The notes: a model not told the origin generated them from the letters alone. Shown: positions 40,266-64,000, numbered from the stretch's first letter. The stretch is DNA of 64,000 nt from Candidatus Tepidifontimicrobium thermophilum (GCA_031459915.1 JAVKHO010000003.1:1-64000), one strand, 5' to 3'. Translations and numbers: made by a program.

Positions 40266-41138
40266 TCAGTCCGTGTACGGAACTCCCAGGGCCTGTGGCT
40301 TCGCCAGTCCCCAGCGGGTCCGGAACCACGGGGTGCTGATGACGGTGAGGATGGCGATGGTCACGCCGAAGGGGACCGTCCGCCACACGTACCGGGAGAG
40401 CACGCCGGGCAGGACGTACTCGGGGCTCAGGGACAGCTGCCACATGGCGCCGAACAGTACCGATCCCCCCAAAAGAACCCACGGGTTCCACATGGAGAAG
40501 AACACCAGCGCCAGGCTCACGAACCCCCAACCCATGAGGAAGTTGTAGTTCCACACGGGGTTATAGGAGAGGGTGTACGCCGCGCCTGCCAGGCCCGCCA
40601 GGGTGCCGCCGAACACCACGCACAGGTACCGGATCCCGGCCACGTTCACGCCCGAGGCCGCCGCGGCGGCTGGGCTTTCGCCCACGGAGCGGATCGCAAG
40701 TCCCAACGACGTCCGGGAAAGCACGAACCAGACCGCGGCCACCAGCAGGGTTCCGCAGTACACGAAGGGGGACAGGCCCACAAGCGCGGGAAAGCGCGGC
40801 AGGCCCAGCGGGCCGGTGTGGGGGCTTCCCAAGTACGTGGTCAGGCCGAAGCTGAGGATCCATAGGCCCATACCGCTGACCACCTGGTCGCCCCGCAGGC
40901 GGATGGAGAACAGGCCGTGGATCCAGCCCAGCAGGCCGCCCACTGCGATCCCCGCGGCCAGTCCCGCCGGGTAGCTCCCGGTGGACTGGGCCACCAGGAA
41001 AGCGGCGGTCCCGCCGAACAGCATGAGTCCTTCCAGCCCGACGTTGAGGATCCCGGACCGCTGGTTCACGAGCTCGCCCAAAGCCGCCAGCAGGAACACC
41101 GTGGACGCCTCCAGGCTCCGGGCCAGCAGCTCGTTCAC
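40266..41138 (-). CDS. ABC permease, nucleoside/purine (CUT2, NupC-like)
   Basis: AALGE...[12 protein letters not shown] and GL.IRSVGE.P.AA motifs; GTG at 41138. True gene is the 3' part of ORF 40266..42497. Confidence 0.9.
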
Positions 41139-42277
41139 CGGGCACCCTCCGGGCGGGGCGGCGCAGAGGTGGGGGCGGGCGCGGTACGCCGCCACACCAC
41201 CCGGTACCGGTCCACCAAGTGCGAGAACACGAAGGTGGTCATCAGCAGGCCCAGGATGGCGTAGTCCACGCCGAAGGGCAGGCGCAAAGCCCCCTGAGCG
41301 AAGCGCCCCCCCACGGACAGGCCGGCGAACAGCAACGCCATGGGGACCGCTCCCACGGCGCTCCCACGGGCGATGAGGGCGCAGATGATGCCGTAAAAGG
41401 ACAGGTCGCCGTAGTACCCGTAGTTGGTAGGGATCTTGTACAGGCCGGGCACAGCGGCGAAGTAATGGTAACCCGCCAGGCCCGAGAAGGCCCCGCCCAG
41501 CACGAACACCCACAGGGACACCCGGACGGGGTCGATCCCGGCATACCGGGCTGCCTGCGGGTTCAGGCCGAAGGTGCGGACGCGGTAGCCCGCGGCCGCC
41601 CGGGAGAAGACGAAGTCCACGACCACGGCCGCTGCCAGGCCGAGGAAGGCGCTGGGCGGCAGGCCCAGCGGGAGGGGGGGGCGGAAGGCCTCCGGCAGCG
41701 TGAAGCTTTCGCCCTCCGCGGTGGCGCTCATGAACGCACCGCCCTCCTTGATGAAGTCCGAAACCAGCCAGAACATCACGGAGTTGAGCATCATGGTCAC
41801 GAGAATCTCGTTCACCGCCAGCTTCGCCCGCAGCAGGCCCACCAGGGCGCCGAGGGAGGCGCCCGCCAGCGCTGCGGCCAAGGGCATGGACAGGAGCGCG
41901 ACGCCCCCGGCGGTGCCGGAGCCCAGCTCCCGGGCCCCCGCCCAGAAGGGCACCGCGAACGCCGCCAGCGCCCCCGCGTAAACCTGACCCGGCAGCCCAA
42001 TGTTCCACAGCCCGCCCCGCAGGGGGATCAGGAAGGCCAGGGTGCACAGCAGCAGGTAGACCGCCCGGTGCACGGTCGCGCCCAGGCCCGAGGGGTTGGC
42101 GAAGGCGTAGCCGAAGGCGATCCGGTAGGCGGTCCACGGGCCCGACTCTGGAGTCCAGAACAGCACGCTGGCCAACAGGAGCGCCAGAGCCACAGCCAGG
42201 AGGGCACCCAGAGCCACGCGGGGGGGCGAAGGGGCCTCCGCCCTTTCCACGGACAGGCGGTATGCGCCGATCCTCAA
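41135..42277 (-). CDS. ABC permease, nucleoside/purine (CUT2, NupB-like)
   Basis: GLWNIGLPGQ, NEILVTMMLN and G.NP.AARYAG motifs. Confidence 0.9.
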   Translation of the reverse strand: MRIGAYRLSVERAEAPSPPRVALGALLAVALALLLASVLFWTPESGPWTAYRIAFGYAFANPSGLGATVHRAVYLLLCTLAFLIPLRGGLWNIGLPGQVYAGALAAFAVPFWAGARELGSGTAGGVALLSMPLAAALAGASLGALVGLLRAKLAVNEILVTMMLNSVMFWLVSDFIKEGGAFMSATAEGESFTLPEAFRPPLPLGLPPSAFLGLAAAVVVDFVFSRAAAGYRVRTFGLNPQAARYAGIDPVRVSLWVFVLGGAFSGLAGYHYFAAVPGLYKIPTNYGYYGDLSFYGIICALIARGSAVGAVPMALLFAGLSVGGRFAQGALRLPFGVDYAILGLLMTTFVFSHLVDRYRVVWRRTAPAPTSAPPRPEGAR

Positions 42278-43818
42278 GCGCGCCTCCCCAGCGAGCCGGC
42301 CATCCACGCGCCCACGGTCTCAGGATCCGCCTCGTTCCGCGGCACGAGAGCCACGAACCGGCCCTCGTACAGGGCTCCCACTCGGTCGCTGACCGCGAAG
42401 ATCTCGTCCAAGTCCTCTGAGATGAGCAGAACCGCAGCGCCGCGTGCCTTGGCTTCCAGAAGCTGGGCCCGCACGAAGCTAGCCGCCTCCACGTCAAGGC
42501 CCTGGGTGGGCAGGTGAGCGACCAGCAGGCGCGGCTGCCGGGACAGCACCCGGCCGAGCACCAGCTTCTGTAGGTTTCCCCCCGACAGGTGCTGCGCCCG
42601 CACGTACGGGTGGGGAGCTTTCACCCGGAAGGTCGCCAGGATCTGACGGGTCAGCCGTTCCAGGCGGGCCCGGTCCAGCATCCCCCGGGGACAGAACTCC
42701 GGGTCGAAGTGGTAGTTGAGCCCGGTGTTCTCCACGAGGCTGAGGGCCGCTACGCTGGCGACCTCGGTACGTTCCGCGGGCACGTAGCCCAGCCCCAGGC
42801 GCCACCGGTCGAGGGTCGGAAGGTGGGTGACATCGCGGCCCAGCAGGCGCACGCGGCCGGAGACGGCCGGTCGAAGCCCCGCCAGCACCTGAGCCAGCTC
42901 CTCCTGCCCGTTGCCGGTGACCCCCGCTACGCCCACGATCTCGCCCTCGTGTACTGTGAGGGAGACGCCTCGCAGGCTCAGCACCCCCTTGTCGTTGTAC
43001 GCAGACAGGTCCTCCACTTCCAGCACCACGGGGCCGCGATGGTCGGGTGCTTGCACGGTGGGGAGGGTAACCTCCTGGCCCACCATGTGCTGGACCAGTT
43101 CGTGGTCGGTGGTGTCCGACACCGACAGCCGGGCTGCAACGCGGCCAGCGCGGAGCACCGTGACGGTTCGGGCCACCGCGCGCACCACGGGCAGCTTGTG
43201 GGTGACCAGAACCACGGTGACGCCGTCCTGGTCCACGAGGGCGCGCAGCGCCCGCAGCAGGGCCTGTACCTCCGGGGGCGTCAGGGCGGAGGTCGGCTCG
43301 TCCAGGATCAGAATGCGGACCCCCGCGTACAGGGCCTTCAGGATCTCCACCCACTGCTTCTCGCCTTCCGACAGCTGCCACACGCGGGCTCCCAGGTCCA
43401 CGTGGACACCGTACCGGGCACACAGGGCCTCGAGCTCCTGACGGGCCCGGCGCAGGTCTAGCAGCCCCCGGGCCCTGGGGTGACCCAGGACCAGGTTCTC
43501 CAGTACCGTGTGGGCAGGGACCAGTCTGCGGGTCTGGTGAACCATCCCGATGCCAGACGCCAGCGCGTCGTGGGGCGAGCGGAAGCGAACGCGTCGGCCG
43601 CGCAGGTACACTTCTCCCTCGTCCGGGTGGATCAGCCCGAAGAGGATGTTCATGAGGGTGGTCTTGCCGGCTCCGTTCTGACCTAGCACCGCGTGGACTT
43701 CCCCCTCCGCCACCTCGAGATCCACGCGGTCCAGGGCCCGGACCCCGGGGAAGGACTTGCTGATTCCCCGGGCGGCGAGAACAGGTGGGGGTGTGCGGTG
43801 CTCCAGCTCCGGCGTCAC
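42274..43818 (-). CDS. ABC ATP-binding protein, duplicated NBD (CUT2, NupA-like)
   Basis: GQNGAGKTTL, LDEPT, LSGGNLQK and LISEDLDE motifs. Confidence 0.94.
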   Translation of the reverse strand: MTPELEHRTPPPVLAARGISKSFPGVRALDRVDLEVAEGEVHAVLGQNGAGKTTLMNILFGLIHPDEGEVYLRGRRVRFRSPHDALASGIGMVHQTRRLVPAHTVLENLVLGHPRARGLLDLRRARQELEALCARYGVHVDLGARVWQLSEGEKQWVEILKALYAGVRILILDEPTSALTPPEVQALLRALRALVDQDGVTVVLVTHKLPVVRAVARTVTVLRAGRVAARLSVSDTTDHELVQHMVGQEVTLPTVQAPDHRGPVVLEVEDLSAYNDKGVLSLRGVSLTVHEGEIVGVAGVTGNGQEELAQVLAGLRPAVSGRVRLLGRDVTHLPTLDRWRLGLGYVPAERTEVASVAALSLVENTGLNYHFDPEFCPRGMLDRARLERLTRQILATFRVKAPHPYVRAQHLSGGNLQKLVLGRVLSRQPRLLVAHLPTQGLDVEAASFVRAQLLEAKARGAAVLLISEDLDEIFAVSDRVGALYEGRFVALVPRNEADPETVGAWMAGSLGRRA

Positions 43819-43825
43819 GGTCTGA

Positions 43826-43857
43826 CGGGGGCCGCGCCCGGCCGGGCGCGGCCCCCG
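43826..43857. repeat. Perfect 32-bp GC palindrome (stem-loop) between the BMP gene and the ATPase gene
   Basis: CGGGGGCCGCGCCCGG|CCGGGCGCGGCCCCCG. Confidence 0.85.
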
Positions 43858-43863
43858 GGGGGT

Positions 43864-45120
43864 TCACTTCAGGACGTTCAAACCGTTCAGGTCGAAGTTG
43901 AACTTCGACAGCAGCCACTCGTCGGTGGGCGTCTGCCCCGCCGGCTTCACCACGGTACCCTTCGGCGGGATGGGGGTCCCCGGGAGCGCTAGCCCGGTCC
44001 CGTTGCTCACCAGGGCGTGCACCTGGAAGGGGTCCCACTGCCCTCTGCGCATCTGCTCCCGCCGCTGAACCACCAGCCGCACGATGGACTCGGGGATCTG
44101 CCGGCGCGCCTTGGGGCTGATCGCGTCCACGCCCACCTTCTTGTTGTTCATGATGTCCACGGTGGACACCACGGTCCCGTCCGCGAGGGTCATGGTGTCC
44201 CGCATCCCGAGGTACAGGAGGTTGCGCGGGCTGCGGTTGCCCGCCAGGTAGTCCCGCACCATCCGGTCGTACAGGACCTCCCACCGGGTGTCGAAGGACA
44301 CCGCTACCGTGTCCGTGTTGGACCAGCCGTAGAAGCCCACGATGTCCATGTCCTTCCCCACGAACCAGATCCCTCGCTGCTGCGCTACGTCCAGGGGCGA
44401 GCCGGAGTCCGTCTGTTGGGTGAGGACGTCCACCCTGTACTGCGTGACCAGGGTCGTGGCCACCTCCCGCTCCTCCGTGGGCTTGTACCAGTCTCCCACG
44501 TACTTCACGTACACGTTCACGCGCTTTCCCAAGGCACGGGCGGCGTCCTGCACGCCCAGGAAGAATCCCGCGGTGCGCCGGAGCACCTGGACGTTGGGGA
44601 AGGCGGAGACCACGCCCACGTTACCGGTCCGGGTCAGGGCGCCCGCAATCAGCCCCTCCAGGTACAGCGCCTGGTACTGGCGGGGGAAGAACCGGATGAA
44701 GTTGGTCTTGCGGCTGACGTCGCTCGCCACCACGGAGCCGAAGTACACGTTGGGGTACTTGTCCGCGATGTCCTTCAGGGGCAGGCCCATGAACTCCGCG
44801 TTGCCGACCACGATGTTGGCTCCCTGACGGATGAGCTCCTCCGCGTACGGGACCGTCAGGTCCGGTCCGACCTCCTCGCGGTACACGTACTTGACGTTGG
44901 GGTACTTCTGCGCGATGCGCTGGCCCGCTCGGTGATGCGCACCCGACCATGTGGTGCCCTTGATGACGCTGAAGTGAAGGATGGCCAGGGTGACGGTGGG
45001 CGGGGCCGCGGACGCGGAGTGCACGTGCCACAGGGAACCTACGGCCAGCACGAGGACCAGGGCCACGGCTGAGGCCCGGAGCCAGGCGCGCGGAGCGCTC
45101 GAACAGGTGTGCCGATCCAT
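43864..45120 (-). CDS. BMP family (PnrA/Med-like) ABC substrate-binding protein, purine/nucleoside type
   Basis: WSGAH..., YQALYLEG.IAG, VGDWY.P..E and DVL.Q.TD motifs; Sec signal without a lipobox Cys. Confidence 0.88.
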   Translation of the reverse strand: MDRHTCSSAPRAWLRASAVALVLVLAVGSLWHVHSASAAPPTVTLAILHFSVIKGTTWSGAHHRAGQRIAQKYPNVKYVYREEVGPDLTVPYAEELIRQGANIVVGNAEFMGLPLKDIADKYPNVYFGSVVASDVSRKTNFIRFFPRQYQALYLEGLIAGALTRTGNVGVVSAFPNVQVLRRTAGFFLGVQDAARALGKRVNVYVKYVGDWYKPTEEREVATTLVTQYRVDVLTQQTDSGSPLDVAQQRGIWFVGKDMDIVGFYGWSNTDTVAVSFDTRWEVLYDRMVRDYLAGNRSPRNLLYLGMRDTMTLADGTVVSTVDIMNNKKVGVDAISPKARRQIPESIVRLVVQRREQMRRGQWDPFQVHALVSNGTGLALPGTPIPPKGTVVKPAGQTPTDEWLLSKFNFDLNGLNVLK

Positions 45121-45277
45121 GGCTGCCCCCCAGAAATGCGAGGCTCGCCGGCGAGCCGCCGGCGGCAAGACGCGGCCTAGATTCTTCGCAGGCGCGCGGT
45201 TCTCCTCCTACGGCGAGAGGGCTCGATGGACAGCGGGTCGAATCCACGCACGCAGGAACGCGTTCCATGGGAGTGCC

Positions 45278-47035
45278 ATGCCGGTTCTCGCGCGGGTCCG
45301 CAGAGGCAGCTACCACGATTCGGTGGCCCTGCTGCAGGCGCAGCAGGCGCTCCGACAGATGCCGGGGGTGGAAGAGGCGGGGGTGGTCATGGCCACGCCC
45401 GCCAACCTCGCGTTGCTCCGGGGGGCAGGCCTGGACGCGCCGGAGCTCCAGGGGGCGGGGCCGGACGACCTGGTGGCGGTGGTCCGGGCGCGGACGCAGG
45501 CGGAGGGTGAGCGGGCGCTGGAACGCCTGGACGAGTTGCTGTCGCCGCGGGGGCCAGCCGGGGGCGCACCCTACCGGCCCCGCACGGTCCGGACGGCGGT
45601 GCGTGCCCTCCCGGGGGCCAACGTGGCCGTGGTGTCCGTACCGGGCCGGTTCGCGGCAGCCGTGGCGGAGGAGGCCCTGCGGGAAGGGCTCCACGTCTTC
45701 CTGTTCAGCGACAACGTGGCGCTGGAGGAGGAGGTGCGGCTCAAGCGCCTCGCGGCCGAGCGAGGGCTTCTCGTGATGGGGCCCGACTGCGGGACCGCCC
45801 TAGTGGCCGGAGCAGGGTTGGGGTTCGCCAACGCGGTCCGTCGCGGCCGTGTGGGAATCGTGGCCGCCTCGGGCACAGGCCTCCAGGAGGTGGCGTGCCT
45901 GGTGCACCGCTGGGGTAGCGGGATCTCCCACGGCCTGGGCACGGGCGGGCGTGACCTGTCCGACGCAGTGGGAGGGGCGAGCTTCGCCACAGCCCTTGCA
46001 GCCCTGGCGGAGGACCCTGGTACCGACGTGGTCGTGCTCCTGTCCAAGCCGCCGTCCCCTCACGTGGCGAGGCAGGTGCTCGCGTTGGCCCGGAGGTGCG
46101 AAAAGCCGGTGGTGGTGAACTTCCTGGGTGCGCAGCCACCGCCTCAGGTGGGGAACCTGTACTTCGCGTCGACCCTGGAGGAGGCGGCACGCTTGGCGGT
46201 CCGGCTTTCTGGTGGGCACCCACCCGCGGAGGCCGAGCTCGAGCCGGAGGCGGTGCCGTGGGCTGCGGGGCAGCGGTGGCTTCGGGGTCTGTTCGTGGGG
46301 GGCAGCCTGTGCGCGGAGGCCCAGCTGGTGCTGCGGGGGAGTCTGGGCCGGGTGTGGTCCAACGTCCCTCTCAGCCCGGACGCGCGGCTACCGGACCCGC
46401 TGGTGAGCCGGGAGCACACCGTGGTGGACTTAGGGTCCGACGAGTTCACCGTGGGGCGGCTGCACCCCATGCTGGACCCGTCCGTGCGCAGCCAAAGGCT
46501 GTTGCACGAGGCGCGGGATGCGGAGGTGGCGGTCCTGCTCGTGGACGTGGTTTTGGGCTTCGGAGCGCACCCGGACCCCGCGGGCGAGCTCGCACAGGCG
46601 TGGGAGGAGGCGGTGGGTACCGCCCGGAGGGCGGGCCGGGAGCTGGTGTGCGTGGCCTCGGTGTGCGGGACGGAGCTGGACCCGCAGCCGCACGGGAGCC
46701 AGGTGGAGCGGCTGCGGGGAGGTGGGGTGGTGGTGGCGCCCACCAACGCCGCGGCGGCCCGGATGGCGGGAGCCCTGTGCGGCCGGTCGGAGCCCCGGGG
46801 AGAAGCGGGGCCGCTGCCGCCCGTGGACCTCCCGGACGGAGAGGGTCGGACCCACGGAGTCCCCGCGGCGGTTCGGGAGCTCCTCCGAGGGCCAGTTCGG
46901 GCCGTTAACGTGGGCCTGGAGTCGTTCGCGCAGAGCCTGCAGTCGCAGGGCGTTCCGGTGGTGTCCGTGGACTGGAAGCCACCCGCGGCAGGCGATGCGG
47001 AGCTGCTGGAGCTGCTGTCGCGGCTGGGCGGCTGA
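45278..47035 (+). CDS. fdrA: FdrA family protein (acyl-CoA synthetase-like; AllF/YahF homolog)
   Basis: Y.DSV.L, FSDNV, VMGPDCGT, AASGTGLQEV, GTGGRDLS and DLG.DEFT.GR.HPM.DP motifs, plus the FdrA-type C-terminus NVGL.SFA...W.PPA.G. Confidence 0.93.
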   Translation: MPVLARVRRGSYHDSVALLQAQQALRQMPGVEEAGVVMATPANLALLRGAGLDAPELQGAGPDDLVAVVRARTQAEGERALERLDELLSPRGPAGGAPYRPRTVRTAVRALPGANVAVVSVPGRFAAAVAEEALREGLHVFLFSDNVALEEEVRLKRLAAERGLLVMGPDCGTALVAGAGLGFANAVRRGRVGIVAASGTGLQEVACLVHRWGSGISHGLGTGGRDLSDAVGGASFATALAALAEDPGTDVVVLLSKPPSPHVARQVLALARRCEKPVVVNFLGAQPPPQVGNLYFASTLEEAARLAVRLSGGHPPAEAELEPEAVPWAAGQRWLRGLFVGGSLCAEAQLVLRGSLGRVWSNVPLSPDARLPDPLVSREHTVVDLGSDEFTVGRLHPMLDPSVRSQRLLHEARDAEVAVLLVDVVLGFGAHPDPAGELAQAWEEAVGTARRAGRELVCVASVCGTELDPQPHGSQVERLRGGGVVVAPTNAAAARMAGALCGRSEPRGEAGPLPPVDLPDGEGRTHGVPAAVRELLRGPVRAVNVGLESFAQSLQSQGVPVVSVDWKPPAAGDAELLELLSRLGG

Positions 47036-47139
47036 ACGTCCCCGAGGGTTCAGGTTAAGATGGGGAGGGCCCGGCTCCGGAGGCCCACCGGGCCCGCGCT
47101 CCGCTTGACGCGGACTTTCCCGGGACGTGGAGGCGACCC

Positions 47140-48381
47140 ATGGACGTGGACGCGGCCAACGACGTGGTGGTGCGGAGGATCCTGGATGCGCACCCTGTGC
47201 TGGTCGGCGTGGGCAGGGCCCTGGACGTGGTCCCGGGCATGCGGAAGGATCTCATCCTGCACGCGGGCCCCCCAGTCACCTGGGACCGCATGTGCGGTCC
47301 GCTTCGCGGGGCGGTTATCGGCGCGCTGCTGTACGAGGGCATGGCCCGGGACGAGCGGGAGGCCGTGGAGCTGGCGGCCTCCGGCGCGGTGCGGTTCGAG
47401 CCCTGCCACCACCACGCGGCCGTGGGCCCCATGGCGGGGGTGACTTCCGCGTCCATGCCCGTCTACATCGTGGAGAACCGCACGCACGGCAACCGCGCGT
47501 ACTCCAACTTCAACGAGGGGTACGGCCGGGTGCTGCGGTACGGCGCGTACGCGCCGGAGGTCCTGGATCGGCTCCGGTGGATCAACGAGACCGTGGCGCC
47601 CGCGCTCGGACAGGCGCTTCAGCGCATGGGCGGGCTGGACATGAAGGCGACCATCGCCCGGCAGCTCACCATGGGGGACGAAGGGCACAACCGGAACGTG
47701 GCGGGCTCCAGCCTCTTTGCCCGCCAGCTGGCCCCTGCCCTGGCGGACTGTGGCCTTGCCCGAGACGAGCTGAGGGGCGTGCTCCGCTACCTGGCGGAGA
47801 ACGACCTCGCCATCCTCAACCCGGTGATGGCGGCCTGCAAGGCCACCCTGGACGCAGCCCACGGGGTCACGGGGTCCAGCGTGGTCACCTGTATGGCCCG
47901 GAACGGCACGGAGTTCGGGATCCGGGTCTCCGGCCTGGGAGACCGGTGGTTCACCGCCCCGGCCCCAGTGCCGAAAGGGCTGTACTTCCCGGGCTTCCGG
48001 GAGGAGGACGCCAACCCCGACATCGGCGACTCCACCATCACGGAGACGGCGGGGATCGGTGCCTTTGCCATGGCCGCGGCACCCGCCATCGTGAAGTTCG
48101 TGGGGGGAACCCCGCAGGACGCCCTCGCCGCCACCCTGGAGATGTACGAGATCACCTTGACGGAGAATCCTGCCTTCGCCATCCCCCAGCTGGACTTCCG
48201 GGGAACTCCTACGGCCATCGACGTCCGGAAGGTGGTGCGGACCGGGATCACGCCCAGGGTCAACACGGGCATCGCCCACCGCGAGCCCGGCGTCGGGCAG
48301 ATCGGCGCCGGCCTGGTGCGGCCGCCCGTGGCGCCCTTCCAGGAGGCCCTCCGCGCACTAGCGGAGCTGGTTTCCCCATGA
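47140..48381 (+). CDS. DUF1116 protein (YlbE/AllG, YahG homolog)
   Basis: ILHAGPP, PCHHH.AVGPMAG, MGDEGHNRN, MARNGTEFGIR, PDIGDSTITE and NTGIAH motifs. Confidence 0.92.
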   Translation: MDVDAANDVVVRRILDAHPVLVGVGRALDVVPGMRKDLILHAGPPVTWDRMCGPLRGAVIGALLYEGMARDEREAVELAASGAVRFEPCHHHAAVGPMAGVTSASMPVYIVENRTHGNRAYSNFNEGYGRVLRYGAYAPEVLDRLRWINETVAPALGQALQRMGGLDMKATIARQLTMGDEGHNRNVAGSSLFARQLAPALADCGLARDELRGVLRYLAENDLAILNPVMAACKATLDAAHGVTGSSVVTCMARNGTEFGIRVSGLGDRWFTAPAPVPKGLYFPGFREEDANPDIGDSTITETAGIGAFAMAAAPAIVKFVGGTPQDALAATLEMYEITLTENPAFAIPQLDFRGTPTAIDVRKVVRTGITPRVNTGIAHREPGVGQIGAGLVRPPVAPFQEALRALAELVSP

Positions 48382-51858: not shown

Positions 51859-51884
51859 GGGACCAACCCGAAGGAGGTGGTGAC

Positions 51885-52865: not shown

Positions 52866-52956
52866 CGGCCGGCCCGCGGATCCAGACCGCGGAGGTGGTA
52901 CGCTCACGGGAGAGGGCGTGGCCTCTAAGGTTGCGCCAGCGGAAGGGAGAAGCGCG

Positions 52957-54696: not shown

Positions 54697-54762
54697 GCCG
54701 CAGGAGGACGTGGCTCCAACGGCGTACAGGAAATCCCATCCCAGGCTGTGGAGGTGAGGCAC

Positions 54763-55599: not shown

Positions 55600-55600
55600 C

Positions 55601-56794
55601 GTGCAACCCCTGGAGGACGTCCTGGTGGTGGACCTGACCCGGGCGCTGGCGGGGCCGTACTGCACCATGATGCTGGCGGACCTGGGCGCCCGGGTGATCA
55701 AGGTGGAGGCCCCGGAGGGCGGGGACGACACCCGCGGCTGGGGTCCGCCCTTCCTCGAGGGCGAGAGCGCGTACTTCATGAGCGTCAACCGCAACAAGGA
55801 GTCGGTGGCGCTGAACCTCAAGCACCCCCGCGGGGTGGAGGTGCTGCACCGGTTGCTGGAGCGGGCCGACGTGCTGGTGGAGAACTTCCGGCCGGGGGTG
55901 ATGGAGCGCCTGGGGTTGGACTACCCTCGGGTGCATGACCGGTACCCGCGCTTGGTGTACTGCTCCATCTCCGGATTCGGGCAGACCGGACCCTACCGGG
56001 AAAAGCCCGCCTACGACCTCATCCTGCAGGGGATGGGCGGGATCATGGGGATCACCGGCGAGGAGGACGGCCCGCCGGTGAAGGTCGGCGTGGCGGTGGC
56101 GGACATCTGCGCGGGCATGTTCGCGGCGTTCGGGATCCTGGCGGCCCTGCGGGTACGGGACCGCACGGGCAGGGGCCAGTGGGTGGACGCATCCCTGCTG
56201 GACGGACAGGTGGCGTGGCTCACCTACGCCGCCGCCAACTACTTCGCCACGGGGAAGGACCCTGTGCGGATGGGGTCCGCGCACCCGAACCTGTGCCCGT
56301 ATCAGGCGTTCCAGACGCAGGACGGATACCTCAACGTGGCGGTGGGAAGTGAGGCGATCTGGAAGCGGTTCTGCGAGGTCGTAGATCCGCGGCTGGCGGA
56401 CGACGAGCGTTTCCGTACCAACGCCGAGCGGGTCCGTCACCGCAACGAGCTGGTCCCGCTGCTGCAGGCGCGCTTCCGGCAGCGCCCCACCCAGGAGTGG
56501 GTTCAGATCCTGGAAGCGGCGGGCGTTCCCTGCGGCCCGATCTACACCGTCTCCCAGGTGTTCCAGGACCCGCAGACCCTGCACCGGCAGATGCGGGTGG
56601 AGCTGGACCACCCGAAGGCGGGGCGCGTCGTGGTCACGGGGGTGCCGGTCAAGTTCTCGGAGACCCCGGGGTCGGTGCGTACCCCGCCGCCGCTGCTGGG
56701 CCAGCACACACGGCCCGTCCTGCGGGAGCTGGGCTACAGCGACGAGGAGGTGGACCAGCTCCGGCGCGTCGGCGCGGTGGGTGTAGGCTCCTGA
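55601..56794 (+). CDS. Family III CoA-transferase (CaiB/BaiF, formyl-CoA transferase-like)
   Basis: LAGPYCTMMLADLGA.VIKVE, NRNKES, ENFRPG and catalytic VAD motifs. Confidence 0.93.
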   Translation: MQPLEDVLVVDLTRALAGPYCTMMLADLGARVIKVEAPEGGDDTRGWGPPFLEGESAYFMSVNRNKESVALNLKHPRGVEVLHRLLERADVLVENFRPGVMERLGLDYPRVHDRYPRLVYCSISGFGQTGPYREKPAYDLILQGMGGIMGITGEEDGPPVKVGVAVADICAGMFAAFGILAALRVRDRTGRGQWVDASLLDGQVAWLTYAAANYFATGKDPVRMGSAHPNLCPYQAFQTQDGYLNVAVGSEAIWKRFCEVVDPRLADDERFRTNAERVRHRNELVPLLQARFRQRPTQEWVQILEAAGVPCGPIYTVSQVFQDPQTLHRQMRVELDHPKAGRVVVTGVPVKFSETPGSVRTPPPLLGQHTRPVLRELGYSDEEVDQLRRVGAVGVGS

Positions 56795-56801
56795 GAGGGG
56801 C

Positions 56802-57734
56802 TCAGTCGGGCGCGGGCCAGCGGGGCCCGGCCCCCCGCAAGCCTTCCCAGTTCGTCCACAGCACAGCGGCCAGGATGAACGTGGCACCCGCGGCCTGCAG
56901 TGCCGTCAGGCGTTCCTGCAGGAGCAGGTGGGCGCTCAGGGCGGCCACTACCGGCTCCCACGTGGCCAGAAGGCTGGCCCGGGCGGGGGCCACCGCCCGT
57001 AACCCGTACAGGAACAGCCCGAAGGGCAGTACGGTGGCCAGCACCGCCAGGTGCAGGAAGCGTAGCCACTGGGTGGCGGTGTACGGCCGCAGCCAGGCCT
57101 CCCACGGAGGAACCACCAGGCTCCAGGCCACAGCGCCCGCCGCCAGCGCCAGGGCCAACACGCCCCAAGAGTCCGAATGGAGTACCTCGCGCCGGGCCAG
57201 CACCGTGTACGCGGCGAACAGCACCGCGGAGGCCAGGCCCCACCCCAGCCCCGCGGGCGTGACCAGGAGGCCTCGAGGACCCGCCACCAGCAGGAAGGCC
57301 CCGGACAGGGCTAGGGCCACCGTGGCGGTCCGCGAGGGAGTCATGGGGTCCCCCTCCGCTAGCCGCGCCCAGACCACCAGCAGCACGGGCGCCAGGTACT
57401 GCAGGAAGATGGCCGTGGCCACGTCCGCGGAGGCTATGGCGGCGTAGTACGCGAACTGGGTTCCGCTCAGGCACACGCCCAGCAGGCCCACCCGCCAGCG
57501 GCGCGCCCAGGCGTCCCGCAGGCCCCCCGGGCGGAGGGATCCCGCGTACAGCACGGCCACCGCGGCCGCACCCCAGAGGCGGATGGCTACCAGGGTGTGG
57601 GGGGCGACCTGCTCCGCGAACAGGGTCTTGGCCACAGCACCCGAAACGCCCCAAAGGCTGGCCGCCAGCAACACCGCGGCGTAGCCGGCGGCCCTGGAGG
57701 GAGCGGCCCGGCCCGTGAGGCTCATGGTGTACAC
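56802..57734 (-). CDS. EamA/DMT family transporter
   Basis: AASLWG, A.FLQYLAP and EPVVAA motifs; about 10 TM. Start may be ATG 57725. Confidence 0.9.
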   Translation of the reverse strand: MYTMSLTGRAAPSRAAGYAAVLLAASLWGVSGAVAKTLFAEQVAPHTLVAIRLWGAAAVAVLYAGSLRPGGLRDAWARRWRVGLLGVCLSGTQFAYYAAIASADVATAIFLQYLAPVLLVVWARLAEGDPMTPSRTATVALALSGAFLLVAGPRGLLVTPAGLGWGLASAVLFAAYTVLARREVLHSDSWGVLALALAAGAVAWSLVVPPWEAWLRPYTATQWLRFLHLAVLATVLPFGLFLYGLRAVAPARASLLATWEPVVAALSAHLLLQERLTALQAAGATFILAAVLWTNWEGLRGAGPRWPAPD

Positions 57735-57742
57735 TGGCGGCG

Positions 57743-58366
57743 ATGCTGCAGCGTCTGATCCCCCGCCGGTGGTTTGACCGCTTCGAGCGCTGGTGGGCCC
57801 GTCGGTACGGGGTGTTCGACTACGCGCCCGGCAGCGTGCTGCGGTTGCAGCTGCACCCTTACACGGGGCCTGAGCTGGAGCTTTCGGACGGCACGGTAGT
57901 GCGCCCGGGGGACCCGGTGGCGGAGGTGCATGTGGACAGTGCGCAGGTGGCGCGGCTTCACCAGGAGGCGGGGGATCCCCGCCGGGTGGGGCTGCAGTTC
58001 GCGCGACGGCTGACGGACGCCTTCACCGCCCTGGCCGCGTACTTCCGGGACAACCCGCACGTGGCCGCGGTGGCGGTGTTCGGCAACACCCTGTACTGGC
58101 AGGGCGCCGAACGGCTGGGGTGGGAGGTCCGTGACCTTACGCCGGGGTTCCACCGCTGGTTCCTCAACGTGTGGCTGCGCTTCCTGGTATGGTACTACCA
58201 CCCCCTGGGGACGCGGCGGACCGCGGGTCGGGCCCGCCTGGCTCGGGTGCGCCAGATCTGGATGTCCCGGAGCCGGCTACTCCAGCTGTACGGGTCTGCC
58301 CGCCGGGCCGGCTCCGTGGCCCGCCCTGAGCAGCTCGTCCAGGGAGACCGGTTCCAGGCCCCGTGA
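57743..58366 (+). CDS. YkoP-like protein
   Basis: Y.G.EL.LSDGT.VR.GD.VAE.H and AERLG.E motifs typical of the YkoP-like domain that accompanies polysaccharide deacetylases. Confidence 0.7.
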   Translation: MLQRLIPRRWFDRFERWWARRYGVFDYAPGSVLRLQLHPYTGPELELSDGTVVRPGDPVAEVHVDSAQVARLHQEAGDPRRVGLQFARRLTDAFTALAAYFRDNPHVAAVAVFGNTLYWQGAERLGWEVRDLTPGFHRWFLNVWLRFLVWYYHPLGTRRTAGRARLARVRQIWMSRSRLLQLYGSARRAGSVARPEQLVQGDRFQAP

Positions 58367-59002
58367 GCGCAACCCCTCCACCATGCGGGGTAGGGCTTCC
58401 AGGACGCGCTGCGGAGTGTCCGGGAACCCCCCCCGGTCGTGAAGGTTCACTACGGCCCCGGGGTGAGCCCGCCGGACCACCTCCCGTGCCATCTGCTCCG
58501 CGGCGGGTTTCCACCGATACCCCTCACCGCGCACGGTCCACAGGACCGCCACGAGCCCCAGGCGGCGGCAGGCCGCGAGCGCCGTTAGGTTGAAAGCGCC
58601 CCACGGCGGCCGGAAGTAAATCGGCCGCACGCCCGTGGCTTGCTGCACGGCCCGGACTCCTTCGGCCACCTCGCGCCAGGTGGCGCGAGGTCCCAGCGTC
58701 CACAGGTGGCCGTGGCTGAAGGTGTGGCTGCCCAGGGAGTGGCCTGCCCGAGCGACCTCGCGGGCGACGTCCGGCAACTCCAGGGCGTAGCGGCCGACGA
58801 AGAAGAAGGTGGCCCGCACCCGGTAGCGGGCCAGCACGTCCACAATGCGTAGGGTGTACTCGGGGTGGGGCCCGTCGTCGAAGGTGAGCGCCACCTGGGA
58901 CCGCCCAGGACCGCGTCGCACCGCAAACCCGGCCCTCGCCACCACCTGGGCACCCAGTGTGTACCCCACCCCCGCGGCGGCCAACACCGCCCACGGCCAC
59001 AC
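58277..59002 (-). CDS. Polysaccharide deacetylase (CE4/NodB family)
   Basis: ALTFDDGP, ATFF, GSHTFSH, FRPPWG and LHD motifs; N-terminal TM anchor. Confidence 0.93.
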   Translation of the reverse strand: MWPWAVLAAAGVGYTLGAQVVARAGFAVRRGPGRSQVALTFDDGPHPEYTLRIVDVLARYRVRATFFFVGRYALELPDVAREVARAGHSLGSHTFSHGHLWTLGPRATWREVAEGVRAVQQATGVRPIYFRPPWGAFNLTALAACRRLGLVAVLWTVRGEGYRWKPAAEQMAREVVRRAHPGAVVNLHDRGGFPDTPQRVLEALPRMVEGLRSRGLEPVSLDELLRAGHGAGPAGRPVQLE

Positions 59003-59004
59003 GC

Positions 59005-60210
59005 TTACCCCTCCTTGGGCTGCCAGCCACCCCTTGCGCTCTTCCGGCGCAACAGAGGTTCCAAGGAACGGGGCAGCAGCATGAGGTAGTTGACCGCCAC
59101 CAGGAATAGGAACAGTCCTGCGGCGTGGAACGGAGCGGAGGGCCCCACGGCGTCCCACAGGACGCCACCGAGGGCGGTGCCCAGGGCGACCCCCGCGCCC
59201 TCAACGGACATCGCGAGACCCAGGAGGGTGGCGCGCCGGGCAGGGGGCAGCAGGTCCATCAAAAGGGCATTCCACGCGGGCAGCATGGTGGCGTAGCCGA
59301 GCCCCAGGATCGCCACCAGGGGGATCAGGATCCACAGGGACCGGAAGAAGGGGAGGACGAAGAGCACCGCGGCTCCTGCTCCGATGCACATCGGGAGCAC
59401 CTCCAGCCGGTCCAGGCGGTCGATGAGACGGCCCAGGGGGACCAGCAAGAGTACCGTGAGGCCGGGTCCCGCCAGCAGCAGGACGCCGATCCACAGGGGC
59501 GTGAGTTTCAGGACCTCGCGGGCGTAGGGGGACAGGGTGGGTACCAGCATGCCCATAGCCAGAGTCTGCGCCGCCATCCCCGCCACCAGGGGCCACAGAC
59601 GCCCCGCGGTGAGTTCCACGTCGTGAACCGACTCCCGCAGCTCCTGCTGCACGTGACCGCGGGAGCGAGCCTCCAGCCGGCCTGCGAGGGGCAGCGCCGC
59701 CAGCTGGCAGGCCGCCACCAGCCCGAAGGCCGCGGCCGTGTGCACCTCCAGGAGGAAGTTGGCCAGCACGAACCCCAGGCCGGTCCCTACCAGCCAGCTG
59801 GTGAACACCGCGCCCATAGCGCTGCCGCGGCCGCCCTCCTCCGTGGCGTCCGCCACACCGCTCACCACCGCAGGCCAGACGGGGGAGGCTCCCGCCCCGC
59901 CCACCGCCGCCGCCAGCAGCAGCCCCCACACCGCCTCCACCTGAGCAAACAGCAGGGTAGCCAGGAGGGTCAGGGACAGCCCCGCCACCACGGGAAGTCG
60001 CCGACCCCACCGGTCCACCAGCCACCCGGACGGGACCTTCAGGGCCAGCTCCGACAGGTAGTAGACGGAGAGGGTGAGCCCCACCACGGACATTCCGTGC
60101 CCCACGCCGAAGCGCAGGTGGTTGGGCAGGAGGGTGAACAGCAACGCGCCCCGGGCGCACTCCACGAGTCCCACCAGGGCCGCGTGGGCGGTGGCGCGGT
60201 TACCGCGCAC
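59005..60210 (-). CDS. MFS transporter, LtaA-like glycolipid flippase candidate
   Basis: 12-TM MFS; VECARG, ASPVWP, RG.AMG.VF.SWL.G and LPAWN motifs resemble S. aureus LtaA; lies next to ugtP. Confidence 0.8.
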   Translation of the reverse strand: MRGNRATAHAALVGLVECARGALLFTLLPNHLRFGVGHGMSVVGLTLSVYYLSELALKVPSGWLVDRWGRRLPVVAGLSLTLLATLLFAQVEAVWGLLLAAAVGGAGASPVWPAVVSGVADATEEGGRGSAMGAVFTSWLVGTGLGFVLANFLLEVHTAAAFGLVAACQLAALPLAGRLEARSRGHVQQELRESVHDVELTAGRLWPLVAGMAAQTLAMGMLVPTLSPYAREVLKLTPLWIGVLLLAGPGLTVLLLVPLGRLIDRLDRLEVLPMCIGAGAAVLFVLPFFRSLWILIPLVAILGLGYATMLPAWNALLMDLLPPARRATLLGLAMSVEGAGVALGTALGGVLWDAVGPSAPFHAAGLFLFLVAVNYLMLLPRSLEPLLRRKSARGGWQPKEG

Positions 60211-61363
60211 CCCGCAAGGCCTCCGGGAGAAGTTGGGTGATGGCCTCCGCGGCCTCCTCAGCCGCTCGGGGCCTGCGGGCCCGCCGGGCGGCGGCCCGCA
60301 TGGACTCCAGCGCCGCGGGGTCGCTCACCAGCTGCGCCACGACCCGCCGGAGCTCCTCCGGGTCCCGTGCCACCCGTGCCGCTCCGGAGGCCACCAGCAT
60401 CCGCGTGTTCCACTCCTCCTGACCGGGGATGGGACGGTAGATGACCATGGGCAGCTCCCGCACCAACGCCTCGGACACGGTGATCCCGCCCGCCTTGGTG
60501 ACCAGCAGGTCCGCCACCGCCATCCACTCGTGCACGTTGGAGACGAACCCATACACGTGGAAGTCCGGCCGACGCCGGCTCCGCTGCCGCAGACGCGCCA
60601 CCAACGCCTCGTCCCGCCCGCACACGAACACCGCCTGGACCCGCTGCGGGAGTGCCGACAGGACCCGGTGGACGTCCAGGATGCCCCCCAGCATCGCATA
60701 GGCTCCCGCCATCACCAGCACCGTGATCCGGGAAGGGTCTACGCCGAGCCGGCTTGCCACCTGCGCCCGATCCACCGGCTGCGCGAACGCGGGGTCCACG
60801 GGGATCCCCGTGACCCGGATGCGGCCGGGCGGCACCCCACGATCCATCAGTCCCGCGCGGACCTCCTCGGAAGCCACGCAGTACAGGTCCACGTGCGGGT
60901 GGATCCACTGGGAGTGCACCGCGTAGTCGGTCAGCACCACCGCGGAGGGTTGCGACGCCTTCCCCTCACCCTTGAGCTCAGAAAGGGAACCTGCGGGCGT
61001 GGGGTGGACCGAGACCACCACGTGGGGGCAGCGTTGCCGGAGGTACGCCAGGAGCCGGGCCTTCCCCAGGCGGTTGATGAACCGTTGCGTGGTGGAGTCC
61101 GGCCGGATGTTGCCGGTGGCATAGTAGAAGGCGCCCCACAGGCGCGGCGCGTGACGGACGCTGCGGACGTACAGGGATCGGGTGAGCCGGTTCACCGCGG
61201 GGTTCACAAACTGTTCGAAGAAGTCCACCACGTCCACCCGGACCCGAGGCAACACCCGACGCCAAGCGTCCTCGAGGACCTCCGCCACCCGCTGGTGTCC
61301 GCCCCCATAGGAGGCGGAGAGCACCAGGAAGGAGGGTGCCTCGGAGCAAGGGGCGCGATCCAT
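60200..61363 (-). CDS. ugtP: MGDG synthase / UgtP-type diacylglycerol glycosyltransferase (GT28)
   Basis: SASYGGGH, TDYAVH..W, TGIPV, TKAGGITVSEAL and PIPGQEE.N motifs. Confidence 0.88.
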   Translation of the reverse strand: MDRAPCSEAPSFLVLSASYGGGHQRVAEVLEDAWRRVLPRVRVDVVDFFEQFVNPAVNRLTRSLYVRSVRHAPRLWGAFYYATGNIRPDSTTQRFINRLGKARLLAYLRQRCPHVVVSVHPTPAGSLSELKGEGKASQPSAVVLTDYAVHSQWIHPHVDLYCVASEEVRAGLMDRGVPPGRIRVTGIPVDPAFAQPVDRAQVASRLGVDPSRITVLVMAGAYAMLGGILDVHRVLSALPQRVQAVFVCGRDEALVARLRQRSRRRPDFHVYGFVSNVHEWMAVADLLVTKAGGITVSEALVRELPMVIYRPIPGQEEWNTRMLVASGAARVARDPEELRRVVAQLVSDPAALESMRAAARRARRPRAAEEAAEAITQLLPEALRGAR

Positions 61364-61366
61364 GGC

Positions 61367-62341
61367 CTACGGGACCTCCCCGGAGATCGCTGGCGCGACT
61401 TCCGGGGCCAGCTGGCAGGCGTCCTCCGCGGCCTTCCACGGAAGGGAGTCAGGCGGCAGCAGGATCCGCAGGGCACGGGGGAGCACCCGCGCCTGGATCC
61501 TCCTCGCCGCCTCCATGGGGTTACCGTCCACGTGGGTCTCCACGGGCCGGTCTGCGTCCACGGTGACCCGGCGGCACCTCTGGATCACGATTTCCGGGAT
61601 GGGGGACCTCCGGAGCATCTTGAGCGCCGCGTTCAGGGATCGCATGCGGCGCATCTCCTGGATGATGTACAGGTCCAGCAGCCCGTCACGGAGACTCGGG
61701 GTGGGCAGAGCGGCCACCCGCTCCCCGTACATGCGCCCGTTCACCACCGCTACCAGCAAGACCCGGCCCGTAAACCGCTCCGACTCGGTGGTGACCTCTA
61801 CCTCGAGGGGCTCGCGGCCAGCCACCAGCTCCAGCAGGCTCGCCAGGAAGTAGACCGCGCGGCCCCGCAGGATGCGCCGGTCCCGGAGGCGGTTGGCGCC
61901 CACCGCCACCCGGGCGTCGAAACCGATCCCGAAGACGTTGGCGAAGAATCGGCCGTTGGCCTCCGCCACGTCGAAGGGTGCGGGCTCCGCGTGGATCAAC
62001 GCCTGCGTGGCCCGCTGCAGGCTCCGGGGGATGGGCAACCCCCGCACAAACTCGTTGGCCGTCCCCGCGGGAATGATCCCCAGCGCGCTGCGCCCGCCGG
62101 CGCGCATCACCCCGTTCACCACCGCGTTTACGGTGCCGTCCCCGCCGACCGCCACGACGGCGGGGAACCCAGCCCGGCTCCCGCGCTCCGCGGTCTCCGC
62201 GAGGGCGTGGAACCCCGCGGCCTGTTGGACCTCGTAGGCCACGCCCCGGCTGCGGAGCGCCCGCGTCACCAGGGGCAACGCGTCCGCGATCCGCCCGCCA
62301 CCCGCGTACGGGTTGACCACCAGAAGCAGCGGCTGCACCAC
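61367..62341 (-). CDS. Diacylglycerol kinase family lipid kinase (DagK/YegS)
   Basis: VNP.AG, GGDGTVN, P.GTAN.F and GIGFDA motifs. Confidence 0.92.
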   Translation of the reverse strand: MVQPLLLVVNPYAGGGRIADALPLVTRALRSRGVAYEVQQAAGFHALAETAERGSRAGFPAVVAVGGDGTVNAVVNGVMRAGGRSALGIIPAGTANEFVRGLPIPRSLQRATQALIHAEPAPFDVAEANGRFFANVFGIGFDARVAVGANRLRDRRILRGRAVYFLASLLELVAGREPLEVEVTTESERFTGRVLLVAVVNGRMYGERVAALPTPSLRDGLLDLYIIQEMRRMRSLNAALKMLRRSPIPEIVIQRCRRVTVDADRPVETHVDGNPMEAARRIQARVLPRALRILLPPDSLPWKAAEDACQLAPEVAPAISGEVP

Positions 62342-62347
62342 AAGCCC

Positions 62348-62353
62348 ATTCTA
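62348..62353 (-). promoter_or_regulatory. -10 element (TAGAAT) for a probably leaderless DAG-kinase operon transcript
   Basis: TAGAAT overlaps the DUF2877 stop and ends 6 nt before the GTG; no SD sequence. Confidence 0.5.
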
Positions 62354-63193
62354 CGGTACCGGGCCGGGGGGAGCCGGCCGCGAGCCCTCGCCGGCCAGGA
62401 GCCCCGCCAGGAAGCCCGCCAGGGTGTCCGCGCCGGAGGTCTCACCGACCGACAGAACCTCCCGCGCAGCCGCTTCCCAGTCTCCTTCTGAAAGCGAAGC
62501 CGCGAGGCGGTGCCACGCTTCGGAGGCAAACCCTGCCGCAGCGGCCCGCAGGTAGGCTCGGGCGATGCGGTGCGTGCCCCGCGCGTGCTGCAGCAGGGTC
62601 TCCCGCGGCCGGCCCTGCAGGTAGAGGGCCAGCATCCAGCCGCACAGGAAGTCGTCCCCGCTGGGCGTGAGCCCCTGGCCGAGGCCGCAAAGCAGCCCGC
62701 AGCCGGATGCGTGCGCGCCCGCGGCGAGGGCAAGGGCTCCCTCCAGGGCCCTTCGATGCCAGTCGCGTAGGGAGGGACCGCGGCCTTGCAGCAGATGGGG
62801 GACCAGGCACGCGAGGCTTTCCGGCGGAGCTGACGCTACCAGCCACGCGCAGCAACGGCGCACCTGAACGGGGTCGGGCCTTGCGCGGGGCAGCGTGGGG
62901 TCCCACCGCGCCGCACCGTCGAGGTCCAGGGTCTGTTCGCCTGCTTGCAGGCAGGAGGGGGTGATCCGCACAGGATCCCCGGGCTGCAGGGACGCCCACG
63001 ACACACCTTCTGCGAGCAGACTCAGCGGGCCCCGACCGAGGTCCGGCGCCACCAGCGCGGCCACCGTCTCCTCAGGTCCCCAGAAGGCTACGTAGGCGCA
63101 GCGGCGGAAGGTGGCCAGCACGCGGCCCTGGGCGCCCCGGGCGCGGAGCGGCTCCAGCCAACGGGGGTACGCGAGGACGCGCACGGCGTTCAA
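62351..63193 (-). CDS. DUF2877 protein (YlbF/AllH, YahE homolog)
   Basis: L.GLG.GLTPSGDDFL.G and G.TSGADTLAG signatures; TTG at 63193 overlaps the CoxS stop. Confidence 0.88.
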   Translation of the reverse strand: MNAVRVLAYPRWLEPLRARGAQGRVLATFRRCAYVAFWGPEETVAALVAPDLGRGPLSLLAEGVSWASLQPGDPVRITPSCLQAGEQTLDLDGAARWDPTLPRARPDPVQVRRCCAWLVASAPPESLACLVPHLLQGRGPSLRDWHRRALEGALALAAGAHASGCGLLCGLGQGLTPSGDDFLCGWMLALYLQGRPRETLLQHARGTHRIARAYLRAAAAGFASEAWHRLAASLSEGDWEAAAREVLSVGETSGADTLAGFLAGLLAGEGSRPAPPGPVP

Positions 63194-63678
63194 GTGCGGC
63201 GGGCCTGCAGGCGGCGTGCCGCGTCCTCCACCGCGCGGACGATGTTCTGGTAGCCGGTGCACCGGCAGAGGTGGCCTGCGAGGGCTTCCCGGATCTGCTG
63301 GCGGGACGGAGCGGGGTGCTCCCGCAGGAAGGCGACCACCGTCATCAGGATGCCCGGCGTGCAGAATCCGCACTGCAGCCCGTGGTTCTCCCAGAAGGCT
63401 TCCTGGACGGGGTGGAGCCGATCCACAGTACCGAGCGCCTCCACCGTGGTTACCCGGTGGCCGGCGGCCTGGATCGCCAGCAACAGGCACGACCGTACAG
63501 GCTCGCCGTCCAGCCACACCGTACACGCACCGCACACGCCCTGCTCGCAGCCCACGTGGGTGCCGGTAAGCTGCAGGTCCTCCCGGAGGACGTCTGCCAG
63601 GGTCTTGCGGACAGGCACCGTGACGGTGTAAGCCGCGCCGTTCACCTCCAGCTGCACGGTCCGCAGGGGTTCACGCAT
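63190..63678 (-). CDS. 2Fe-2S small subunit of a xanthine dehydrogenase/CoxS-family molybdoenzyme
   Basis: GCEQGVCGACTV, QCGFCTPG and LCRCTGY motifs. Confidence 0.95.
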   Translation of the reverse strand: MREPLRTVQLEVNGAAYTVTVPVRKTLADVLREDLQLTGTHVGCEQGVCGACTVWLDGEPVRSCLLLAIQAAGHRVTTVEALGTVDRLHPVQEAFWENHGLQCGFCTPGILMTVVAFLREHPAPSRQQIREALAGHLCRCTGYQNIVRAVEDAARRLQARRT

Positions 63679-64000
63679 GGGCGCCTCCGGAGCGGGTCCG
63701 GGCGCGGGTCCAGGCGAGGCGGACGGTGCGCGCGGTCAGCACCGCGGCCAGGTGCCGCCGGAACTCACTGGAGGCGTGGAGGTCTCCGTCCGGCTGGAGG
63801 ACGCGGCGCGCCTCCGCGGAGGCGGCCCGGATTCCCTCTTCCAGGTCCGAGTGTTCTACCAGGGCGGCCTCCGCTTCGCGCAGCCGGACCGGTACCGGCC
63901 CTGCGCCCGCGTACGCCAGCCGGGCGTCCTGAATCCGTCCGTCCCCGGCCCGCACGCCTGCGGCCACCGCACACAGCGCGTAGTCCCCGTGACGGTTGCT
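63671..64000 (-). CDS. FAD-binding (CoxM-type) subunit of a xanthine dehydrogenase-family enzyme, C-terminal part (truncated by window)
   Basis: R.GDYAL, P.P.R..EAE.AL and DLHAS.EFRR.LA.VL C-terminal motifs. Confidence 0.88.
   Translation of the reverse strand, partial: SNRHGDYALCAVAAGVRAGDGRIQDARLAYAGAGPVPVRLREAEAALVEHSDLEEGIRAASAEARRVLQPDGDLHASSEFRRHLAAVLTARTVRLAWTRARTRSGGAHA

Follow-up and report, generated by a model that had tools for sequence, protein, structure and literature searches.

The first 64,000 nucleotides of contig C23 (JAVKHO010000003.1) of Candidatus Tepidifontimicrobium thermophilum, hereafter the window, belong to a genome of 2.6 Mb that is 96% complete and has a GC content of 71%. 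Between position 40,266 and the end of the window lie the genes of one conserved, uncharacterised catabolic system that is transcribed. Its two facing operons combine AllFGH-like proteins, a CoxLMS-type molybdoenzyme, a cyclase-family hydrolase, a CoA-transferase and a fused carboxyltransferase, and we judge with a probability of roughly 0.55 that they encode a variant of the oxidative pyrimidine pathway, for which we infer every substrate and product from sequence. A preliminary description of this DNA had proposed a single N-heterocycle catabolic system distinct from canonical allantoin use, a view that our analysis supports. Its emphasis on purines does not hold up as well; gene context instead favours pyrimidines, which appear to be the more likely substrates.

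Pfam and NCBIfam profile searches bear out the genes named at that stage (FdrA, DUF1116, the cyclase, the CoA-transferase, the fused carboxyltransferase, EamA and CoxM/CoxS) as well as two complete BMP importers, each a Bmp protein with an ABC ATPase and two permeases. A minus-strand importer is divergent from the plus-strand operon allF-allG-ABC2-bmp2-accDA-cyclase-caiB. The latter opens with allF (45278–47035; NF004760, 536 bits versus a cut-off of 433), whose product, AllF/FdrA, is likely an acyl-ureide phosphorylase subunit, and allG (DUF1116, 47140–48381; PF06545, 3CLQ); after the second importer come the fused AccD–AccA carboxyltransferase (52957–54696), the cyclase (54763–55599; PF04199) and the family III CoA-transferase CaiB (55601–56794; PF02515). 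Facing it is the minus-strand operon coxL-coxG-coxM-coxS-allH, the first genes of which extend past the window to C23:67334: coxL at C23:64995–67334 and coxG at about 64549–64998 are both just outside it, and the CoxM-type FAD subunit reaches in with its 3' end (63671–64000), followed by the CoxS-type 2Fe-2S subunit (63190–63678) and AllH (DUF2877, 62351–63184; PF11392). Each of allF, allG and allH is single-copy in the genome. The DNA beyond the window thus supplies the Mo-binding large subunit that the preliminary description had proposed to seek there; the carbamate kinase, to be sought in the same place, sits on another contig.

The same description had DUF2877 translationally coupled to the molybdoenzyme genes. 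They are indeed neighbours, but the overlap probably is not real: three close relatives lack the overlapping TTG at 63193 but keep the GTG at 63184, which lies 5 nt past the coxS stop here and 4–6 nt past it in them. The allH start is therefore more likely GTG 63184, and the coxS-allH coupling more likely a short gap than an overlap.

To describe conservation we used the best 80 of 564 confirmed AllG loci among genome contigs, with records from Chloroflexota, Firmicutes, Acidobacteriota and others; neighbours were called by tblastn, and the counts are lower bounds (37 of the 80 loci are shorter than 15 kb). Beside allG we find allF in 68 loci, the cyclase in 59, coxM in 38, coxL in 33, caiB in 26, bmp1 in 14, allH in 12 and accDA in 9, and in two loci (L027 and L053) the two halves of the cluster are directly adjacent. 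Failure to co-occur in other genomes had been named as grounds for rejecting the system; the genes occur together widely. The tie of DUF2877 to the molybdoenzyme is likewise general: when 41 related genomes were compared, coxS preceded allH in 29 of the 30 best AllH loci. In 11 of these 30 loci eamA lies directly 3' of allH, which places the EamA exporter (56802–57725, minus strand; Pfam) within the system, as proposed, although an insert separates the two genes here; accDA faces allH in 6. Both caiB and accDA are present in 14 of 14 relatives' regions, which were picked for having allG together with the cyclase or allH on a long contig. Across the 41 genomes, one of them unpublished (G023), AllG is present in 37, the cyclase in 36, AllH in 36, the fused AccDA in 35 and an NF040766 CoxL in 33 (31 over cut-off). 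All five are jointly missing from four genomes (G008, G010, G011 and G013), which amounts to about two losses because three of the four belong to one genus, and most of the remaining misses fall in fragmented assemblies.

Evidence of transcription comes from a hot-spring RNA run (X6), of which about 5 in 100 parts were sampled. This gave 265 placed reads, 103 of them only 90–95% alike, at a depth below 6 and with some reads from other organisms. First mates map to the minus strand over 45428–58707 and to the plus strand over 59372–64000; for the usual type of stranded library, this means that both operons are transcribed in sense at a low level. Two further runs (X4 and X5) contributed 6 and 2 reads.

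The classical oxidative pyrimidine pathway, as described in PMC3758960, uses uracil/thymine dehydrogenase, barbiturase and ureidomalonase and ends in urea and malonate. In the variant we propose, the BMP systems would import the substrate, the molybdoenzyme would convert uracil (or thymine) to barbiturate, and the cyclase-family hydrolase, in place of barbiturase, would open barbiturate to ureidomalonate. AllFGH would then cleave ureidomalonate with phosphate to malonamate and carbamoyl phosphate, acting on a substrate one CH2 longer than in the E. coli-assigned reaction. Malonamate would pass to malonate through an amidase, a step without a linked gene in this genome; CaiB, predicted to activate malonate or malonamate, would give malonyl-CoA, and the fused AccDA would turn this into acetyl-CoA and CO2. 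Thymine would instead lead to methylmalonyl-CoA and then propionyl-CoA, and the carbamoyl phosphate may serve the unlinked carbamate kinase or biosynthesis. The order of steps put forward earlier (import, Mo-dependent hydroxylation, ring opening by the cyclase, ureide cleavage by AllFGH, CoA-dependent disposal) is supported by gene content; for the disposal of a C2/C3 acid, the dependence on CoA stands, and gene context favours the C3 acid, malonate. Relative to the classical pathway, the predicted differences are a cyclase for barbiturase, phosphate cleavage to carbamoyl phosphate rather than hydrolysis to urea, and CoA-dependent malonate disposal encoded alongside in the window. The similarities lie in the placement of CoxL in a barbiturase-linked clade, in the same kinds of genes around actinobacterial barbiturases and in pyrimidine-specific neighbours in relatives.

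These neighbours include a cytosine deaminase, which is over cut-off in 8 of the 80 AllG loci and is also present in 4 of the 14 relatives' regions. In one genome of the window's own family (G009), a cytosine deaminase and the cytosine permease CodB, the latter over cut-off, lie beside the cyclase. Other neighbours in the AllG loci are a nitrilase (24), an NmrA-like protein (21), an NCS2 transporter whose best match is uracil permease (12) and an amidase (11), the last linked to the cluster in Chloroflexota. In another relative (G020), the cluster also contains genes resembling those for hydantoinase, carbamoylase, aminotransferase and aldehyde dehydrogenase.

Uracil/thymine dehydrogenase, as characterised, belongs to the XDH family. 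Of the seven XDH-type large subunits in this genome, the window CoxL is the only one over the cut-off of NF040766, the NCBIfam "aerobic CO dehydrogenase" model; the two actinobacterial CoxL proteins score 1452 and 1541. In quick IQ-TREE runs (49 rows, and 17 rows chosen from these with long branches omitted), it shares a clade (SH-aLRT 100) with CoxL proteins linked to barbiturase and with those linked to AllG in Chloroflexota, and its paralogues fall outside this clade. The pocket motifs PEE and PYGxIVPI are common to the window and actinobacterial proteins. Although the window CoxL resembles form II CoxL in passing the NF040766 cut-off and in its YRGAGR-type motif (PYRGAGR), its context points to a heterocycle hydroxylase, and the AYXCSFR motif given for form I Mo-Cu CO dehydrogenase (PMC7645674) is absent from it. 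A form I CoxL with AYRCSFR and coxM-S-L order is encoded elsewhere (C28:101887–104238) and probably belongs to a true aerobic CO dehydrogenase; the genome's six other large subunits are also of the XDH family. The possibility that an aerobic CO dehydrogenase merely lies beside unrelated genes, suggested by the NCBIfam name, is already largely refuted by these motifs, the constant coxS-allH pairing and the joint losses, and retains next to no probability.

Isatin hydrolases open a cyclic amide, and they are the best Foldseek matches (E 5e-15) of the window cyclase, which was modelled with a pLDDT of 88. The protein shares with isatin hydrolase and kynurenine formamidase the fold (TM about 0.65) and the H-x3-H-x-D motif with downstream His and Glu, yet identity is only about 20%, and it scores 37 versus 223 bits at the cut-off of the kynurenine formamidase KynB model (TIGR03035). 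Its metal motif is well kept: across 45 sequences, E239 is invariant, and H56, H60, D62 and H66 are conserved in 90% or more. We predict that it opens the barbiturate ring. AtzD-family barbiturase has no match in this genome, and cyclase and barbiturase never share a locus. The 80 AllG loci hold 59 cyclases and no barbiturase, and the best 80 of 570 barbiturase loci, drawn from metagenomes, hold no cyclase. The barbiturase loci do carry the other kinds of genes, with carbamate kinase in 45 (directly upstream in 43), caiB in 19, accDA in 17, coxL in 12 (6 at 45% identity or more), allF in 9, allG in 8 and an AllH-like cluster in 8. Five of the metagenome contigs (L160, L164, L176, L188 and L189) show an accDA-barbiturase-allH-allF-allG operon whose XDH belongs to a different subfamily, about 30% identical to the window CoxL, and a few of them also carry cytosine deaminase; this is the most direct barbiturase–AllFGH link that we have seen. 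The two genes of a putative hydantoinase/oxoprolinase subunit pair also neighbour barbiturase, one in 24 and the other in 21 of 84 clustered loci (representatives L158:6353–8557 and L162:4823–7087).

Besides metagenome contigs, the barbiturase context rests on two named records, Embleya and Nonomuraea. These are the two best CoxL matches in the plasmid collection, about 10 kb from the AllG matches of the same records, which rank third and first among AllG matches. Embleya carries allH-allF-allG, a RutG/uracil-permease-like transporter, coxM-S-L-G, nitrilase, barbiturase, carbamate kinase, fused accDA, caiB and a cytosine-deaminase-like gene, which shares 53% identity with the cytosine deaminase seen in AllG loci. 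The AtzD-family model is positive on Embleya, and the top PDB match of that enzyme is the barbiturase 5HWE, at 595 bits, with the best cyanuric acid hydrolase scoring 324; the Embleya carbamate kinase reaches 341 bits, just below the cut-off of 358. Nonomuraea is similar over about 45 kb, with no match to the carbamate kinase in the stretch compared.

Ureidomalonate differs from oxalurate by one additional CH2. The window's AllF, AllG and AllH are 40%, 50% and 25% identical to E. coli FdrA, YlbE and YlbF, so that all three subunits are present, once each, with their conserved polar residues and motifs: AllF H396 is invariant in 6 of 6 aligned sequences, and AllH keeps GLTPSGDD and SGAD. The AllH model (pLDDT 92) consists of a small beta domain and a helical domain and finds no Foldseek match at E ≤0.001 (best VIA-align Z 4.5); it therefore gives no mechanistic clue, and a new fold is not thereby shown. 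The organisation departs from the contiguous allFGH-allK operon of E. coli described in PMC11326118, in that allH lies 14 kb from allFG, on the other strand and next to coxS, and the carbamate kinase, over cut-off at C33:42821, is unlinked. This sole kinase gene is divergent from a putative 2,4-diaminopentanoate-dehydrogenase-type reductase gene and precedes an aminotransferase (C33:41730–44957). The partners differ as well, being the Mo hydroxylase, cyclase, CaiB and AccDA rather than the allantoin genes. In agreement with the earlier expectation, no canonical allB or allC gene exceeds its cut-off anywhere in the 96% complete genome: the best allantoinase score is 273 bits versus 358, nothing of the hydantoinase/allantoate amidohydrolase family (allC) is over cut-off, and the two Ldh_2 (AllD-family) genes are unlinked and in other contexts.

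Downstream of ring and ureide cleavage, the fused AccDA is neither the only carboxyltransferase nor linked to accB/accC, in contrast to the housekeeping acetyl-CoA carboxylase, for which separate accD, accA, accB and accC genes lie on C32. It is a second copy that tracks the cluster, with a predicted role in (methyl)malonyl-CoA decarboxylation. CaiB exceeds no NCBIfam cut-off for a CoA-transferase subfamily, oxalate CoA-transferase models included. Another family III CoA-transferase, with an acyl-CoA-dehydrogenase-like gene, lies 3.5 kb past coxL (C23:70811–73116); this CaiB falls outside the clade of the cluster's own.

Several observations weigh against a pyrimidine pathway of this form. In this genome, cytosine deaminase, an NCS2 ortholog and an ortholog of the linked nitrilase were not found, and no amidase is linked; an amidase of 41% identity lies unlinked at C29:141940. 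Both 80-locus sets consist of best matches rich in kin and may overlap, so that their counts are not independent. In FastTree trees, neither the window's CaiB, AccDA and AllG nor the carbamate kinase of this genome clusters with its barbiturase-linked counterparts, and the window AccA is 58% identical to the housekeeping AccA versus 36–42% to barbiturase-linked copies; the likeness is therefore one of gene kinds, with only CoxL orthologous. That the two fused AccDA genes have separate origins may reflect convergence on a common need. Even for CoxL, six barbiturase loci carry a different XDH subfamily, about 30% identical to the window protein. Carbamate kinase occurs in only 1 of the 80 AllG loci and in 31 of the 41 genomes, two of which are without the cluster, and it was not found in several 96–97% complete genomes that bear the cluster. 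Since the kinase lies away from the cluster and its distribution does not follow it, an ATP gain is uncertain in this lineage; CarB is present and no arginine deiminase was found in the genome, so that neither accounts for the kinase. Lastly, AllFGH also occurs in triazine or biuret contexts and alone does not fix the substrate, and a 36% identical cyclase lies on a Rhodococcus plasmid with DUF1116 genes, Rieske oxygenases and malate synthase, a context that looks like methylpurine or N-methyl-heterocycle catabolism. On that Rhodococcus ruber plasmid (L114, L266), two DUF1116 genes accompany the cyclase together with nitrilases and formate dehydrogenase, and there is no annotated fdrA in the two stretches. 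A haloarchaeal cyclase (42%) is found on a Halorussus plasmid (L115:5103–20418) with XDH subunits, an NCS2-type permease and an amidohydrolase.

Some of these points could suit the same architecture acting on another cyclic ureide, such as a modified pyrimidine, a triazine product or another N-heterocycle, which we regard as unlikely. On an Aminobacter plasmid (L203:7226–19194), fdrA, DUF1116, a ring-opening amidohydrolase of the cyanuric-acid type, carbamate kinase, an amidohydrolase, a BMP importer and DUF2877 occur together. Similar DUF1116–amidohydrolase pairs are seen on many enterobacterial plasmids. In nitrifiers, AllFGH is described with triuret/biuret genes (PMC12625717), an atrazine-binding protein is the best PDB match of both window BMP proteins, and transporters and deaminases inside the relatives' clusters vary. 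These PDB matches are weak, however, and assign no ligand; a triazine ring has no need of Mo-dependent hydroxylation or of a step through malonyl-CoA, an AtzD-family gene was not found in this genome (the model is positive in 2 of the 41 relatives), and among the substrate-specific neighbours it is cytosine deaminase and cytosine permease that exceed a cut-off.

Binding of purine nucleosides is common among BMP proteins and would fit a purine route as in E. coli, with an XDH oxidising a purine, the cyclase opening the ring to oxalurate and AllFGH giving oxamate. Also in its favour are the Rhodococcus plasmid context, the presence in this genome of two Ldh_2 genes and of an allantoinase-like gene that stays below threshold, and the fact that oxalurate/oxamate is the sole assayed AllFGH reaction, the phosphorolysis assigned to the E. 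coli proteins having been assayed in reverse (PMC11326118). We nonetheless consider this route quite unlikely: uricase is not over cut-off here and is found in only 2 of the 41 relatives, allantoate amidohydrolase was not found, CoxL scores about 400 versus 780, far under the xanthine dehydrogenase cut-offs, CaiB is below those for oxalate CoA-transferase, and a C2 acid would leave the carboxyltransferase without a use.

Still less probable, in our estimation, is a uracil substrate with AllF acting as a CoA ligase, AllFG(H) passing the C3 acid to CoA with no free carbamoyl phosphate. AllF does carry CoA-binding and CoA-ligase domains (Pfam), as noted for E. coli FdrA (PMC3364942), and both the carbamate kinase distribution in this lineage and the missing amidase link would agree with such a reaction. 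Against it, the assay mixture given for E. coli AllFGH lists no CoA (PMC11326118), 43 of the 80 barbiturase loci have carbamate kinase immediately before the barbiturase gene, and a separate CoA-transferase is kept in all 14 relatives' regions.

Should the oxidative pyrimidine pathway variant be correct, ring opening would fall to an enzyme that shares no ancestry with barbiturase, and the urea part would be kept as energy-rich carbamoyl phosphate. Three orphan groups (the cyclase subfamily, AllFGH outside enterobacteria and one form II-like CoxL clade) would gain functions, pyrimidine catabolism would acquire an energy-conserving branch among bacteria common in soils, sediments and hot springs, and the NCBI "CO dehydrogenase" label would mislead trace-gas surveys. 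More tentatively, and with odds somewhat below even, AllFGH may be a general acyl-ureide phosphorylase, the cyclase a second, unrelated barbiturase and NF040766 proteins uracil/thymine dehydrogenases in a widespread energy-saving route. Most barbiturase-bearing actinobacteria would then end in carbamoyl phosphate, not urea, and fused AccDA would have been recruited twice, independently, as a malonyl-CoA decarboxylase. In the literature searched, with subscription papers mostly outside it, no paper joins AllFGH or the cyclase to pyrimidine breakdown; papers on the AtzD/barbiturase family may describe such neighbourhoods. The CSP1-3/Sysuimicrobiota phylum, to which the organism probably belongs, is described as likely facultatively anaerobic (PMC11604079), and the main text of that paper makes no mention of uracil, purine, pyrimidine or coxL. 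Actinomycetes are aerobes, and their examples suggest that the route extends beyond anaerobic bacteria.

The remaining genes of the region are the importers and an insert. Importer 1, on the minus strand, comprises two CUT2 ABC permeases (40266–41138 and 41135–42307; both PF02653), an ATPase with two ATP-binding domains (42274–43818; PF00005) and the BMP/PnrA-like binding protein 1 (43864–45120; PF02608), whose best PDB match is 6PI5 (E 8e-25) and which is the conserved importer protein. Importer 2, on the plus strand, has an ATPase (48378–49892), two CUT2 permeases (49889–50923 and 50920–51858) and the binding protein BMP 2 (51885–52865), all identified with Pfam; BMP 2 is found in close kin only and is accessory. 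The five genes at 57743–62341, identified by Pfam and locus comparison (ykoP, a polysaccharide deacetylase, an MFS transporter, a UgtP-like glycosyltransferase and DagK), are unrelated to the system. dagK, ugtP, pda and mfs occur in none of the 80 AllG loci and ykoP in 2, and dagK-ugtP follows allH in 6 of the 30 best AllH loci, every one in the window's own family; this segment is therefore an insert between allH and eamA, and likely a glycolipid or cell-surface module. We had considered EamA as part of this lipid insert and dropped the idea, since eamA adjoins allH in other loci. At the other end, the cluster starts right past a putative secG-tRNA pair, with tRNA-Leu(GAG) at 40177–40261 ending 4 bases before the last importer gene.

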